Source: Escherichia phage T7
Sequence record: MZ375255.1
DNA: 37,752 bases
Direction: 5' to 3' (one strand)
This document shows, one piece after another, positions 141-37,752 of the stretch. The notes below the pieces were generated by a model that was not told the origin of the DNA, made no database searches, and saw only the letters and a program-made list of their open reading frames with translations. Within the stretch, counting starts at the first letter, position 1, and each line of letters begins with the position of its first letter. A program made the translations under genes and the position numbers.

Positions 141-153
141 CTCTGTTACAGTC

Positions 154-2587: not shown

Positions 2588-5239
2588 ATGAACACGATTA
2601 ACATCGCTAAGAACGACTTCTCTGACATCGAACTGGCTGCTATCCCGTTCAACACTCTGGCTGACCATTACGGTGAGCGTTTAGCTCGCGAACAGTTGGC
2701 CCTTGAGCATGAGTCTTACGAGATGGGTGAAGCACGCTTCCGCAAGATGTTTGAGCGTCAACTTAAAGCTGGTGAGGTTGCGGATAACGCTGCCGCCAAG
2801 CCTCTCATCACTACCCTACTCCCTAAGATGATTGCACGCATCAACGACTGGTTTGAGGAAGTGAAAGCTAAGCGCGGCAAGCGCCCGACAGCCTTCCAGT
2901 TCCTGCAAGAAATCAAGCCGGAAGCCGTAGCGTACATCACCATTAAGACCACTCTGGCTTGCCTAACCAGTGCTGACAATACAACCGTTCAGGCTGTAGC
3001 AAGCGCAATCGGTCGGGCCATTGAGGACGAGGCTCGCTTCGGTCGTATCCGTGACCTTGAAGCTAAGCACTTCAAGAAAAACGTTGAGGAACAACTCAAC
3101 AAGCGCGTAGGGCACGTCTACAAGAAAGCATTTATGCGAGTTGTCGAGGCTGACATGCTCTCTAAGGGTCTACTCGGTGGCGAGGCGTGGTCTTCGTGGC
3201 ATAAGGAAGACTCTATTCATGTAGGAGTACGCTGCATCGAGATGCTCATTGAGTCAACCGGAATGGTTAGCTTACACCGCCAAAATGCTGGCGTAGTAGG
3301 TCAAGACTCTGAGACTATCGAACTCGCACCTGAATACGCTGAGGCTATCGCAACCCGTGCAGGTGCGCTGGCTGGCATCTCTCCGATGTTCCAACCTTGC
3401 GTAGTTCCTCCTAAGCCGTGGACTGGCATTACTGGTGGTGGCTATTGGGCTAACGGTCGTCGTCCTCTGGCGCTGGTGCGTACTCACAGTAAGAAAGCAC
3501 TGATGCGCTACGAAGACGTTTACATGCCTGAGGTGTACAAAGCGATTAACATTGCGCAAAACACCGCATGGAAAATCAACAAGAAAGTCCTAGCGGTCGC
3601 CAACGTAATCACCAAGTGGAAGCATTGTCCGGTCGAGGACATCCCTGCGATTGAGCGTGAAGAACTCCCGATGAAACCGGAAGACATCGACATGAATCCT
3701 GAGGCTCTCACCGCGTGGAAACGTGCTGCCGCTGCTGTGTACCGCAAGGACAAGGCTCGCAAGTCTCGCCGTATCAGCCTTGAGTTCATGCTTGAGCAAG
3801 CCAATAAGTTTGCTAACCATAAGGCCATCTGGTTCCCTTACAACATGGACTGGCGCGGTCGTGTTTACGCTGTGTCAATGTTCAACCCGCAAGGTAACGA
3901 TATGACCAAAGGACTGCTTACGCTGGCGAAAGGTAAACCAATCGGTAAGGAAGGTTACTACTGGCTGAAAATCCACGGTGCAAACTGTGCGGGTGTCGAT
4001 AAGGTTCCGTTCCCTGAGCGCATCAAGTTCATTGAGGAAAACCACGAGAACATCATGGCTTGCGCTAAGTCTCCACTGGAGAACACTTGGTGGGCTGAGC
4101 AAGATTCTCCGTTCTGCTTCCTTGCGTTCTGCTTTGAGTACGCTGGGGTACAGCACCACGGCCTGAGCTATAACTGCTCCCTTCCGCTGGCGTTTGACGG
4201 GTCTTGCTCTGGCATCCAGCACTTCTCCGCGATGCTCCGAGATGAGGTAGGTGGTCGCGCGGTTAACTTGCTTCCTAGTGAAACCGTTCAGGACATCTAC
4301 GGGATTGTTGCTAAGAAAGTCAACGAGATTCTACAAGCAGACGCAATCAATGGGACCGATAACGAAGTAGTTACCGTGACCGATGAGAACACTGGTGAAA
4401 TCTCTGAGAAAGTCAAGCTGGGCACTAAGGCACTGGCTGGTCAATGGCTGGCTTACGGTGTTACTCGCAGTGTGACTAAGCGTTCAGTCATGACGCTGGC
4501 TTACGGGTCCAAAGAGTTCGGCTTCCGTCAACAAGTGCTGGAAGATACCATTCAGCCAGCTATTGATTCCGGCAAGGGTCTGATGTTCACTCAGCCGAAT
4601 CAGGCTGCTGGATACATGGCTAAGCTGATTTGGGAATCTGTGAGCGTGACGGTGGTAGCTGCGGTTGAAGCAATGAACTGGCTTAAGTCTGCTGCTAAGC
4701 TGCTGGCTGCTGAGGTCAAAGATAAGAAGACTGGAGAGATTCTTCGCAAGCGTTGCGCTGTGCATTGGGTAACTCCTGATGGTTTCCCTGTGTGGCAGGA
4801 ATACAAGAAGCCTATTCAGACGCGCTTGAACCTGATGTTCCTCGGTCAGTTCCGCTTACAGCCTACCATTAACACCAACAAAGATAGCGAGATTGATGCA
4901 CACAAACAGGAGTCTGGTATCGCTCCTAACTTTGTACACAGCCAAGACGGTAGCCACCTTCGTAAGACTGTAGTGTGGGCACACGAGAAGTACGGAATCG
5001 AATCTTTTGCACTGATTCACGACTCCTTCGGTACCATTCCGGCTGACGCTGCGAACCTGTTCAAAGCAGTGCGCGAAACTATGGTTGACACATATGAGTC
5101 TTGTGATGTACTGGCTGATTTCTACGACCAGTTCGCTGACCAGTTGCACGAGTCTCAATTGGACAAAATGCCAGCACTTCCGGCTAAAGGTAACTTGAAC
5201 CTCCGTGACATCTTAGAGTCGGACTTCGCGTTCGCGTAA
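2588..5239 (+). CDS. 1: T7 RNA polymerase (883 aa)
   Basis: 883-aa ORF MNTINIAKNDFSDIELAAIPFNTLADHYGERLAREQ..., ends FAFA. Confidence 0.99.
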   Translation: MNTINIAKNDFSDIELAAIPFNTLADHYGERLAREQLALEHESYEMGEARFRKMFERQLKAGEVADNAAAKPLITTLLPKMIARINDWFEEVKAKRGKRPTAFQFLQEIKPEAVAYITIKTTLACLTSADNTTVQAVASAIGRAIEDEARFGRIRDLEAKHFKKNVEEQLNKRVGHVYKKAFMRVVEADMLSKGLLGGEAWSSWHKEDSIHVGVRCIEMLIESTGMVSLHRQNAGVVGQDSETIELAPEYAEAIATRAGALAGISPMFQPCVVPPKPWTGITGGGYWANGRRPLALVRTHSKKALMRYEDVYMPEVYKAINIAQNTAWKINKKVLAVANVITKWKHCPVEDIPAIEREELPMKPEDIDMNPEALTAWKRAAAAVYRKDKARKSRRISLEFMLEQANKFANHKAIWFPYNMDWRGRVYAVSMFNPQGNDMTKGLLTLAKGKPIGKEGYYWLKIHGANCAGVDKVPFPERIKFIEENHENIMACAKSPLENTWWAEQDSPFCFLAFCFEYAGVQHHGLSYNCSLPLAFDGSCSGIQHFSAMLRDEVGGRAVNLLPSETVQDIYGIVAKKVNEILQADAINGTDNEVVTVTDENTGEISEKVKLGTKALAGQWLAYGVTRSVTKRSVMTLAYGSKEFGFRQQVLEDTIQPAIDSGKGLMFTQPNQAAGYMAKLIWESVSVTVVAAVEAMNWLKSAAKLLAAEVKDKKTGEILRKRCAVHWVTPDGFPVWQEYKKPIQTRLNLMFLGQFRLQPTINTNKDSEIDAHKQESGIAPNFVHSQDGSHLRKTVVWAHEKYGIESFALIHDSFGTIPADAANLFKAVRETMVDTYESCDVLADFYDQFADQLHESQLDKMPALPAKGNLNLRDILESDFAFA

Positions 5240-9537: not shown

Positions 9538-9985
9538 AGGAATCCGAAAGGTTGGAGCGTTTCGCTCTGGCCTAGAGGACAAGGTTTCAAAGCAGTTGGA
9601 ATCAAAAGGTATTAAATTCGAGTATGAAGAGTGGAAAGTGCCTTATGTAATTCCGGCGAGCAATCACACTTACACTCCAGACTTCTTACTTCCAAACGGT
9701 ATATTCGTTGAGACAAAGGGTCTGTGGGAAAGCGATGATAGAAAGAAGCACTTATTAATTAGGGAGCAGCACCCCGAGCTAGACATCCGTATTGTCTTCT
9801 CAAGCTCACGTACTAAGTTATACAAAGGTTCTCCAACGTCTTATGGAGAGTTCTGCGAAAAGCATGGTATTAAGTTCGCTGATAAACTGATACCTGCTGA
9901 GTGGATAAAGGAACCCAAGAAGGAGGTCCCCTTTGATAGATTAAAAGGAAAGGAGGAAAGAAATAATGGCTCGTGTACAGTTTAA
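9518..9985 (+). CDS. 3: Endonuclease I (Holliday junction resolvase), C-terminus altered by 1-nt frameshift (155 aa vs 149 aa native)
   Basis: MAGYGAKGIRKV...; ends ...DRLKGKEERNNGSCTV instead of ...DRLKRKGGKK; A4 run at 9943-9946. Confidence 0.85.
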   Translation: MAGYGAKGIRKVGAFRSGLEDKVSKQLESKGIKFEYEEWKVPYVIPASNHTYTPDFLLPNGIFVETKGLWESDDRKKHLLIREQHPELDIRIVFSSSRTKLYKGSPTSYGEFCEKHGIKFADKLIPAEWIKEPKKEVPFDRLKGKEERNNGSCTV

Positions 9986-10421: not shown

Positions 10422-12291
<1,870 letters not shown>

Positions 12292-35393: not shown

Positions 35394-37154
35394 GTGTCTA
35401 CTCAATCCAATCGTAATGCGCTCGTAGTGGCGCAACTGAAAGGAGACTTCGTGGCGTTCCTATTCGTCTTATGGAAGGCGCTAAACCTACCGGTGCCCAC
35501 TAAGTGTCAGATTGACATGGCTAAGGTGCTGGCGAATGGAGACAACAAGAAGTTCATCTTACAGGCTTTCCGTGGTATCGGTAAGTCGTTCATCACATGT
35601 GCGTTCGTTGTGTGGTCCTTATGGAGAGACCCTCAGTTGAAGATACTTATCGTATCAGCCTCTAAGGAGCGTGCAGACGCTAACTCCATCTTTATTAAGA
35701 ACATCATTGACCTGCTGCCATTCCTATCTGAGTTAAAGCCAAGACCCGGACAGCGTGACTCGGTAATCAGCTTTGATGTAGGCCCAGCCAATCCTGACCA
35801 CTCTCCTAGTGTGAAATCAGTAGGTATCACTGGTCAGTTAACTGGTAGCCGTGCTGACATTATCATTGCGGATGACGTTGAGATTCCGTCTAACAGCGCA
35901 ACTATGGGTGCCCGTGAGAAGCTATGGACTCTGGTTCAGGAGTTCGCTGCGTTACTTAAACCGCTGCCTTCCTCTCGCGTTATCTACCTTGGTACACCTC
36001 AGACAGAGATGACTCTCTATAAGGAACTTGAGGATAACCGTGGGTACACAACCATTATCTGGCCTGCTCTGTACCCAAGGACACGTGAAGAGAACCTCTA
36101 TTACTCACAGCGTCTTGCTCCTATGTTACGCGCTGAGTACGATGAGAACCCTGAGGCACTTGCTGGGACTCCAACAGACCCAGTGCGCTTTGACCGTGAT
36201 GACCTGCGCGAGCGTGAGTTGGAATACGGTAAGGCTGGCTTTACGCTACAGTTCATGCTTAACCCTAACCTTAGTGATGCCGAGAAGTACCCGCTGAGGC
36301 TTCGTGACGCTATCGTAGCGGCCTTAGACTTAGAGAAGGCCCCAATGCATTACCAGTGGCTTCCGAACCGTCAGAACATCATTGAGGACCTTCCTAACGT
36401 TGGCCTTAAGGGTGATGACCTGCATACGTACCACGATTGTTCCAACAACTCAGGTCAGTACCAACAGAAGATTCTGGTCATTGACCCTAGTGGTCGCGGT
36501 AAGGACGAAACAGGTTACGCTGTGCTGTACACACTGAACGGTTACATCTACCTTATGGAAGCTGGAGGTTTCCGTGATGGCTACTCCGATAAGACCCTTG
36601 AGTTACTCGCTAAGAAGGCAAAGCAATGGGGAGTCCAGACGGTTGTCTACGAGAGTAACTTCGGTGACGGTATGTTCGGTAAGGTATTCAGTCCTATCCT
36701 TCTTAAACACCACAACTGTGCGATGGAAGAGATTCGTGCCCGTGGTATGAAAGAGATGCGTATTTGCGATACCCTTGAGCCAGTCATGCAGACTCACCGC
36801 CTTGTAATTCGTGATGAGGTCATTAGGGCCGACTACCAGTCCGCTCGTGACGTAGACGGTAAGCATGACGTTAAGTACTCGTTGTTCTACCAGATGACCC
36901 GTATCACTCGTGAGAAAGGCGCTCTGGCTCATGATGACCGATTGGATGCCCTTGCGTTAGGCATTGAGTATCTCCGTGAGTCCATGCAGTTGGATTCCGT
37001 TAAGGTCGAGGGTGAAGTACTTGCTGACTTCCTTGAGGAACACATGATGCGTCCTACGGTTGCTGCTACGCATATCATTGAGATGTCTGTGGGAGGAGTT
37101 GATGTGTACTCTGAGGACGATGAGGGTTACGGTACGTCTTTCATTGAGTGGTGA
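35394..37154 (+). CDS. 19: Terminase large subunit gp19 (586 aa)
   Basis: 586-aa ORF with ATPase P-loop-like FRGIGKS and nuclease domain. Confidence 0.97.
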
Positions 37155-37235: not shown

Positions 37236-37258
37236 TAATACGACTCACTATAGGGAGA
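37236..37258 (+). promoter_or_regulatory. T7 class III promoter phiOR
   Basis: TAATACGACTCACTATAGGGAGA. Confidence 0.95.
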
Positions 37259-37412
37259 GGAGGGACGAAAGGTTACTATATAGATACTGAATGAATACTT
37301 ATAGAGTGCATAAAGTATGCATAATGGTGTACCTAGAGTGACCTCTAAGAATGGTGATTATATTGTATTAGTATCACCTTAACTTAAGGACCAACATAAA
37401 GGGAGGAGACTC

Positions 37413-37460
37413 ATGTTCCGCTTATTGTTGAACCTACTGCGGCATAGAGTCAAGTCCTAA
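37413..37460 (+). pseudogene. 19.5: Gene 19.5 truncated to 15 codons by ~189-bp deletion
   Basis: RBS aagggaggag; MFRLLLNLLRHRVKS* where reference gp19.5 is 49 aa. Confidence 0.7.
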
Positions 37461-37612
37461 GGTATACCCATAAAGAGCCTCTAATGGTCTATCCTAAGGT
37501 CTATACCTAAAGATAGGCCATCCTATCAGTGTCACCTAAAGAGGGTCTTAGAGAGGGCCTATGGAGTTCCTATAGGGTCCTTTAAAATATACCATAAAAA
37601 TCTGAGTGACTA
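37456..37612 (+). repeat. Right-end short repeat region (CCTAAAG/CCTAAGG-type) preceding right TR
   Basis: tcctaaggt...tcctaaggt...cctaaag...cctaaag units. Confidence 0.5.
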
Positions 37613-37752
37613 TCTCACAGTGTACGGACCTAAAGTTCCCCATAGGGGTACCTAAAGCCCAGCCAATCACCTAAAGTCAACCTTCGGTTGACCTTGAGGG
37701 TTCCCTAAGGGTTTGTCTTTGGGTGTTACCTTGAGTGTCTCTCTGTGTCCCT
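37613..37752 (+). repeat. Right direct terminal repeat (TR), 140 bp, identical to 1..140
   Basis: Exact identity with window positions 1..140. Confidence 0.95.

Follow-up and report, generated by a model that had tools for sequence, protein, structure and literature searches.

A 189-bp deletion between 9-bp direct repeats truncates gene 19.5 and removes a probable M-hairpin at the right end of a phage T7 genome

Introduction

In the Escherichia phage T7 genome of record MZ375255.1 (37,752 nucleotides, the whole of which is called the window here), gene 19.5 begins normally at the right end and reaches a stop after 15 codons. This raises the questions of how the short gene arose, what was lost together with it, and why the loss was retained. 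The window is phage T7 less 2185 bp, and its 3' end holds gene 19, the promoter phiOR, the start of gene 19.5 and the terminal repeat. The records nearest to it are named "Mutant Escherichia phage T7 clone T7_nnL/S" (MZ375233-294). The CiPGr study (Yuan et al, 2022; PMC9825161) took T7 through 300 passages on E. coli MG1655 with Cas9, lambda Red and a plasmid library, in which each plasmid carried a spacer and two 50-bp arms for the deletion of a whole gene or of 100 bp. We conclude that the window is very probably a laboratory T7 from the CiPGr passages, in which an undesigned 189-bp deletion between repeats truncated gene 19.5, removed the probable M-hairpin and was then selected during passage.

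Results and Discussion

The deletion lies between the only two copies of a 9-bp repeat

The window was aligned with the T7 reference NC_001604 and walked base by base, and the segment at ref 39420-39608, equivalently 39429-39617, was found to be absent. A loss that the earlier note had put at about 189 bp is thus exact to the base, and its figure of 200 nt from the ATG of gene 19.5 to the right terminal repeat (37413 to 37613), against 389 nt in the reference (39389 to 39778), was reproduced. The features of the region, in window coordinates, are as follows.

35394-37154, plus strand: gene 19 (large terminase), intact and upstream, from the ORF list and annotation
37236-37258, plus strand: T7 promoter phiOR, TAATACGACTCACTATAGGGAGA, intact, an exact match to the consensus, annotated at ref 39229
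37399-37408, plus strand: RBS of gene 19.5, AAGGGAGGAG, intact and the same as in the reference, read from the sequence
37413-37460, plus strand: truncated gene 19.5, MFRLLLNLLRHRVKS followed by a stop, by translation
37444-37452, no strand: retained single copy of the 9-bp direct repeat ATAGAGTCA, which is the deletion junction, from 9-mer counts and alignment
37453-37612, no strand: unique right-end sequence kept from the junction to the terminal repeat, identical to ref 39618-39777, by alignment
37613-37752, no strand: right terminal repeat, 140 bp against 160 in the reference, by alignment

The promoter phiOR now stands 189 bp nearer to the terminal repeat. The junction homology is 9 bp, ATAGAGTCA, a sequence present in the T7 genome at the two breakpoints (ref 39420 and 39609) and nowhere else, and present once in the window (37444). 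The left breakpoint of the parent reads CTGCGGC-ATAGAGTCA-CCTACC and the right one CATCCCT-ATAGAGTCA-AGTCC; the spacing between the copies equals the length of the deletion, and exactly one copy is left, as in a deletion between direct repeats. An AGAGTCA-like motif had been suggested for both sides of the gap. The reference does carry a repeat on both sides; it is the 9-bp ATAGAGTCA and not the suggested 7-mer. When 2 million random deletions of 50-1000 bp were drawn from the T7 genome, a fraction of 6e-5 had a junction homology of 9 bp or more, and the homology is therefore longer than expected by chance. The ATAGAGTCA repeats mediated the 189-bp deletion, and this is secure.

Gene 19.5 keeps its start and loses most of its product

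The start and RBS of gene 19.5 are normal and translation of 37413-37460 ends after 15 codons, as had been read before. The truncated frame is composed of 13 native codons and two new ones (K and S) before the stop, and these 15 codons stand for the 49 of the wild type, whose product has 49 aa. The deleted interval runs from codon 11 (codons 11-49) to 70 bp past the native stop, and the predicted membrane segment of gp19.5 is lost by the truncation. The gene is not natively this short: it has 49-50 codons in T7, Vi06, Ebrios, T3-like and KP32-like phages, and gp19.5 matches PHROG 2193, a family without an assigned function, over its full length. In an account given in PMC2680503, gp19.5 was proposed as a secondary holin-like factor.

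A conserved palindrome is removed with the gene

The deleted DNA also contains an imperfect 41-bp palindrome at ref 39568-39608, with arms of 19 nt each (39568-39586 and 39590-39608) around a 3-nt loop. The 189-bp deletion ends on the last base of this palindrome, which is gone entirely. Its centre, ref 39588, is 190 bp left of the terminal repeat, and a search of ref 39380-39790 found no second local inverted repeat. The M-hairpin was reportedly placed by Chung et al. in 1990 at "about 190 bp left of the terminal repeat". Because of this position, and because the literature as represented in PMC2680503 places the M-hairpin adjacent to gene 19.5, the palindrome is probably the M-hairpin, a concatemer-processing element. 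The earlier note had described the deleted segment as near packaging and processing signals, which is right for the location and understated for the effect, since the whole conserved palindrome beside gene 19.5 was removed.

More than 100 other T7-like records carry the wild-type 41-mer without a change, and the same hairpin architecture, ending on ATCCCT, is present in T3-like and KP32-like phages, making three genera in all. Of the 15 hairpin pairs compared between the T7 and T3-like types, 4 show compensatory double changes and none is broken. Folding of the 221-nt deleted region as a whole was no better than that of shuffled sequence (z = 0.39), and only the local 41-nt hairpin stood out; Rfam gave no match in the region. 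From gene 19.5 to the terminal repeat, no non-coding stretch is better conserved among Teseptimavirus, Teetrevirus and Przondovirus than the block CACCACTYCATCCCTNTANAGTCAA (ref 39593-39620), which consists of the right arm of the palindrome and the right repeat copy. Read on the minus strand, this block is similar to a T7 promoter with 2 bp missing.

The deletion arose undesigned and spread in the CiPGr passage series

The clones of the CiPGr study are named by transfer number and by large (L) or small (S) plaque (PMC9825161). Odd accessions were found to be L clones and even ones S clones in 13 anchor records, and since MZ375255, the one accession absent among the sibling records, falls in the slot of 120L, the window probably belongs to the CiPGr series as clone T7_120L and is probably itself a large-plaque clone. 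The link between these records and the study is based on the clone names and on the methods given in PMC9825161. A 41-mer spanning the junction was found in 41 records, all within MZ375238-292. The same 41-mer was not found in IMG/VR or metagenome contigs, where the wild-type right junction is present in 16 IMG/VR contigs. The deletion appears earliest in T7_30S and, from transfer 180, no clone is without it. Among the clones of transfers 30-170, 14 of the 15 with small plaques carry it and 2 of the 15 with large plaques do (Fisher p = 2e-5), an association confounded by lineage, as the clones with the deletion mostly carry A161C at the concatemer junction and the others mostly T162C.

T7 recombines freely in mixed infections. 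The deletion co-occurs with three left-end deletions and three concatemer-junction alleles, and because of such recombination these allele backgrounds do not separate a single origin from repeated ones.

That the short gene is an assembly artefact or a natural allele of gene 19.5 is scarcely credible. The series genomes were assembled de novo from short reads (PMC9825161), and some homopolymer differences in the terminal repeat may indeed be errors of that kind. However, a repeat of 9 bp is too short to make a de Bruijn assembly collapse 189 bp, the junction is present in 41 independent assemblies and absent from the other 19 passage-series clones, which were handled by the same pipeline, and the loss of gp19.5 was also seen by metagenomic sequencing of the passaged populations (PMC9825161). 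As for a natural allele, the junction is in no natural record or contig searched, and the relatives encode 49-50 aa.

The other deletions of the window bear on whether the loss was designed. There are six of them. The earlier note had set the loss in gene 19.5 apart from ORF-precise deletions elsewhere, and this contrast largely stands: genes 1.4 and 4.7 are removed exactly by ORF, but the deletions in genes 3.8, 4.3 and 5.3 are only design-like, with junction homology of 0-3 bp, and a second undesigned deletion of 563 bp (ref 1341-1903, window 1321/1322) covers genes 0.4-0.6 with 1 bp of homology. As all gene-sized deletions of the window but one are otherwise design-like, an edit of gene 19.5 from a homology template of the CiPGr library might be supposed here as well. 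This is most improbable. The 189-bp deletion is neither 100 bp long nor bounded by an ORF, since it opens at codon 11 and closes 70 bp beyond the stop. Its junction homology of 9 bp stands against 0-3 bp at designed edits, and the authors list gp19.5 among the "large fragments that we did not design", for which they suggested CRISPR escape as the cause (PMC9825161). The deletion had earlier been called a spontaneous one between direct repeats; it is undesigned and repeat-mediated, with which the source paper agrees (PMC9825161), but it arose and spread during Cas9-driven serial passage.

Undesigned losses are also seen elsewhere in sibling genomes. T7_30S, T7_1t1 and T7_1t3 have a 1480-bp loss in the early region (ref 1244-2723) between 13-bp repeats, AGGAAGTCGAGGA, and T7_50S has a 676-bp early loss between CTGA repeats.

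Cas9 guides as a possible agent of selection

Designed 100-bp deletions in T7_1t1 and T7_1t3 follow a layout of 40 bp, a 20-nt protospacer and 40 bp in 5 of 5 cases. Applying this rule to the designed deletion of ref 39565-39664 in the same two clones, we infer a library guide at ref 39605-39624 with PAM AGG, in non-coding DNA outside gene 19.5 and over the right repeat copy. In the window it is represented by one feature.

37440-37462, plus strand: remnant of the inferred Cas9 target, the guide being deduced from the 40+20+40 geometry

The target at the junction after the deletion reads CGGCATAGAGTCAAGTCCTA-AGG. Its PAM and the 16 PAM-proximal bases are intact and bases 17-19 are changed (5' CCCT to CGGC), so that the PAM and seed survive the deletion and escape from this guide would be partial at best. 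The deletion as an end-joining product of a cut by this guide was also considered and is excluded, as AGTC is kept to the left of the cut. Over the wider interval, the deletion destroys 24 of the 26 NGG protospacers with a cut site between 39389 and 39621, and would thus evade any guides in that interval in a single step.

CRISPR escape as the whole story would have library guides cutting in the interval, the 9-bp repeats annealing with the help of T7 gp6/gp2.5 and of lambda Red on the Cas9 plasmid, and the product spreading because it has lost several protospacers. We consider this quite possible, if somewhat short of an even chance. It is favoured by the paper itself, which blames the undesigned losses on escape mutations and places lambda Red on the Cas9 plasmid (PMC9825161), by the designed deletion that puts a guide at 39605-39624, by the 24 of 26 lost protospacers, and by the substitutions C39596T (clone 70L) and C39606A (clone 30L), which would alter the PAM and seed of a minus-strand guide that is possible at 39599-39618. 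On the other hand, the point mutations of the siblings all miss the seed and PAM of the guide at 39605-39624, the commonest alleles of the palindrome (T39591C and ATC39590-92TTG) are outside every NGG protospacer or PAM, none of the 7 sequenced siblings without the deletion is changed inside gene 19.5, and no clone from the whole-gene library has a designed edit at this site.

Sibling genomes carry convergent lesions in the palindrome

All 14 sequenced clones of transfers 30-170 that lack the deletion have a point mutation in the palindrome, and within the series the wild-type 41-mer is kept only at transfers 10-20. The lesions other than the 189-bp deletion, in reference coordinates, are listed below.

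C39606A: clone 30L
A39572G with ATC39590-92TTG: clone 40L
ATC39590-92TTG: clone 50L
C39596T: clone 70L
T39591C: clones 60L, 80L, 100L, 100S, 110L and 130L-170L, and also, outside transfers 30-170, MZ375293 and OL964739 (12 records)
A39585G: T7_5t3, outside the main passage series
39565-39664, designed 100-bp deletion: T7_1t1 and T7_1t3, without junction homology and outside annotated genes, removing the palindrome
~39366-39719, deletion of ~354 bp: T7_300L.2 (MZ375294), a later clone

The deletion in T7_300L.2 takes the whole of gene 19.5 and its RBS, together with the palindrome and the conserved block that lies right of it, and leaves ~58 bp before the terminal repeat. In the same clone, a short stretch at ref ~39304-39313 appears to have been copied from 39724-39743.

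These lesions raise the possibility that the M-hairpin was costly under the CiPGr regime and that the 189-bp deletion was the most accessible way of removing it, an explanation that we regard as tentative and somewhat unlikely. In its favour, nine distinct lesions fall on the 41 bp of the palindrome, three of them deletions (189, 100 and ~354 bp) and the other six point alleles. Furthermore, all 7 mutated positions are paired in the predicted hairpin, every allele destabilises it by 1.1-3.3 kcal/mol, and A39585G and T39591C strike the two partners of one base pair. Two changes elsewhere in these genomes point the same way, namely the alteration of the adjoining pause signal ATCTGTT at the concatemer junction in four ways and the T7 RNA polymerase substitution Q184R in 6 of 7 fully compared series genomes. 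Against a cost of the palindrome, 64-78% of random substitutions also destabilise the hairpin, the element is conserved in nature, and its deletion is said in the account of PMC2680503 to impair processing. In addition, no such mutations are found in other lab-evolved T7 records, and the four concatemer-junction alleles could be escape mutations too (protospacer 161-180). A bias of the palindrome mutations towards the stem or towards extra destabilisation was looked for against random substitutions and was rejected as not significant.

The pause signal itself, the class II T7 RNA polymerase pause/termination signal ATCTGTT at window 141-147 (ref 161-167), reads CTCTGTT in the window (A161C). 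Across the series its alleles are A161C (34 records), T162C (18 records), T164G (50S) and T167A (100S), and A161C, T162C and T164G were not found in T7 records outside the CiPGr study. A possible minus-strand protospacer spans 161-180 (PAM 158-160), and the four alleles occupy its seed positions 1, 2, 4 and 7; because they fall on seed bases as well as on the signal, selection on pausing and escape from Cas9 are not separable at ATCTGTT. Q184R in the window is at position 3138 (ref 3721), and the substitution is also present in clones 40S, 50S, 90L, 100S and T7_1t1. It lies near residues ~172-173, a region implicated in recognition of class II signals.

A repeat-mediated loss, probably under strong selection

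Returning to the preferred reading, a repeat-mediated deletion later selected in passage, the 189-bp deletion would form between the only two copies of ATAGAGTCA and leave one of them, either by slipped-strand mispairing in replication or by single-strand annealing after a break between the repeats. The palindrome, which borders the right repeat copy, would plausibly favour slippage. For annealing, the break could have been made by another guide or during natural hairpin processing. The deletion then rose in passage, probably through strong selection on the interval from gene 19.5 to the palindrome. The candidate agents of that selection are a cost of the palindrome and Cas9 guides directed at the interval, singly or together.

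The event is an ordinary repeat-mediated deletion of a class long known in T7. Deletions of T7 between short direct repeats were reportedly described by Studier et al. in 1979, Pierce, Kong and Masker in 1991 and Kong and Masker in 1994, and both double-strand breaks and palindromes located between the repeats are said to promote them. As in that work, the DNA between short repeats was lost here and one copy kept, with a palindrome abutting the right copy; the earlier events, however, were in the early region or in engineered reporters, whereas the present one is at the right end beside concatemer-processing signals.

The loss of gp19.5 is likewise already recorded by the makers of the phage, and the viable loss of gene 19.5 together with the M-hairpin has been known since 1996 through work cited in PMC2680503. 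According to that source, a T7 without gene 19.5 and the M-hairpin adjacent to it remains viable, lyses late and forms small plaques (Kim & Chung, 1996, Virology 216:20; Kim et al [Kim, Kim & Chung], 1997, Virology 236:37). As far as that mutant is described there, the window resembles it in being viable with the function of gene 19.5 and the adjacent probable hairpin element lost, and the enrichment of the deletion in small-plaque clones recalls its small plaques and late lysis. This enrichment fits the published phenotype but is confounded by lineage, because the two groups of clones differ at the concatemer junction. Unlike the 1996 mutant, the present allele arose by itself in Cas9-driven passage and in a genome with six other deletions.

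The deletion also resembles the CEMs of Yuan et al (2022; PMC9825161), as an undesigned loss under Cas9 pressure in which most protospacers of the interval are gone, and differs from a proven CEM in that the PAM and seed of the inferred guide survive. With the designed CiPGr edits it shares the experiment and the genome, and the sibling designed deletion of 39565-39664 removes the same palindrome. Those edits, unlike the 189-bp deletion, show little or no homology at their junctions, and they either follow the ends of an ORF or take exactly 100 bp around a central protospacer.

For genome minimisation, T7 39420-39608 can be lost with viability kept, and a sibling shows the same for ~39366-39719; the DNA so lost includes a hairpin conserved across three genera. 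If the lesions are not Cas9 escapes, terminal-repeat duplication through the hairpin and pause would be dispensable in some regimes. That the at least nine independent hairpin lesions, the pause-signal mutations, Q184R and the shortening of the terminal repeat are indeed not Cas9 escape, and that the canonical hairpin/pause route is thus dispensable or even counter-selected in some growth regimes, seems to us unlikely. To this reading belongs the suggestion that small plaques come from the loss of gp19.5 and not from that of the hairpin, because the point mutants of the hairpin are large-plaque clones. The convergent damage to hairpin and pause site in publicly available siblings could be used to test the long-standing hairpin-primed model of T7 terminal-repeat duplication.

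Other changes in the window

The terminal repeat has lost 18 bp between GGGTT repeats and 1 bp in each of two homopolymers, and the left repeat (1-140) shows these changes too. In both repeats CCCCCATAGGGGG is shortened to CCCCATAGGGG; the 1-bp homopolymer changes may be errors of short-read assembly. Several other lengths of the terminal repeat are found among the siblings.

Two promoters are altered. At window 385 (ref 405), phiOL is changed from TATAAGGAGA to TATAGGGAGA, toward the consensus, as it is in several siblings, and T7_1t1 and T7_1t3 have instead tandem duplications of 42 or 63 bp of the phiOL region (ref 396). In phi10, a strong late promoter, the G at +1 is replaced by T (window 20928, ref 22904; TATAGGGAGA to TATATGGAGA), a change that is absent from T7_90L.

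At window 9943-9946 (ref 10682-10686), a run of five A residues near the end of gene 3 is reduced to four, which could be a homopolymer sequencing error. Gene 3 encodes endonuclease I, which cuts junctions and cruciforms, and with the shorter run its last six residues change from RKGGKK to GKEERNNGSCTV.
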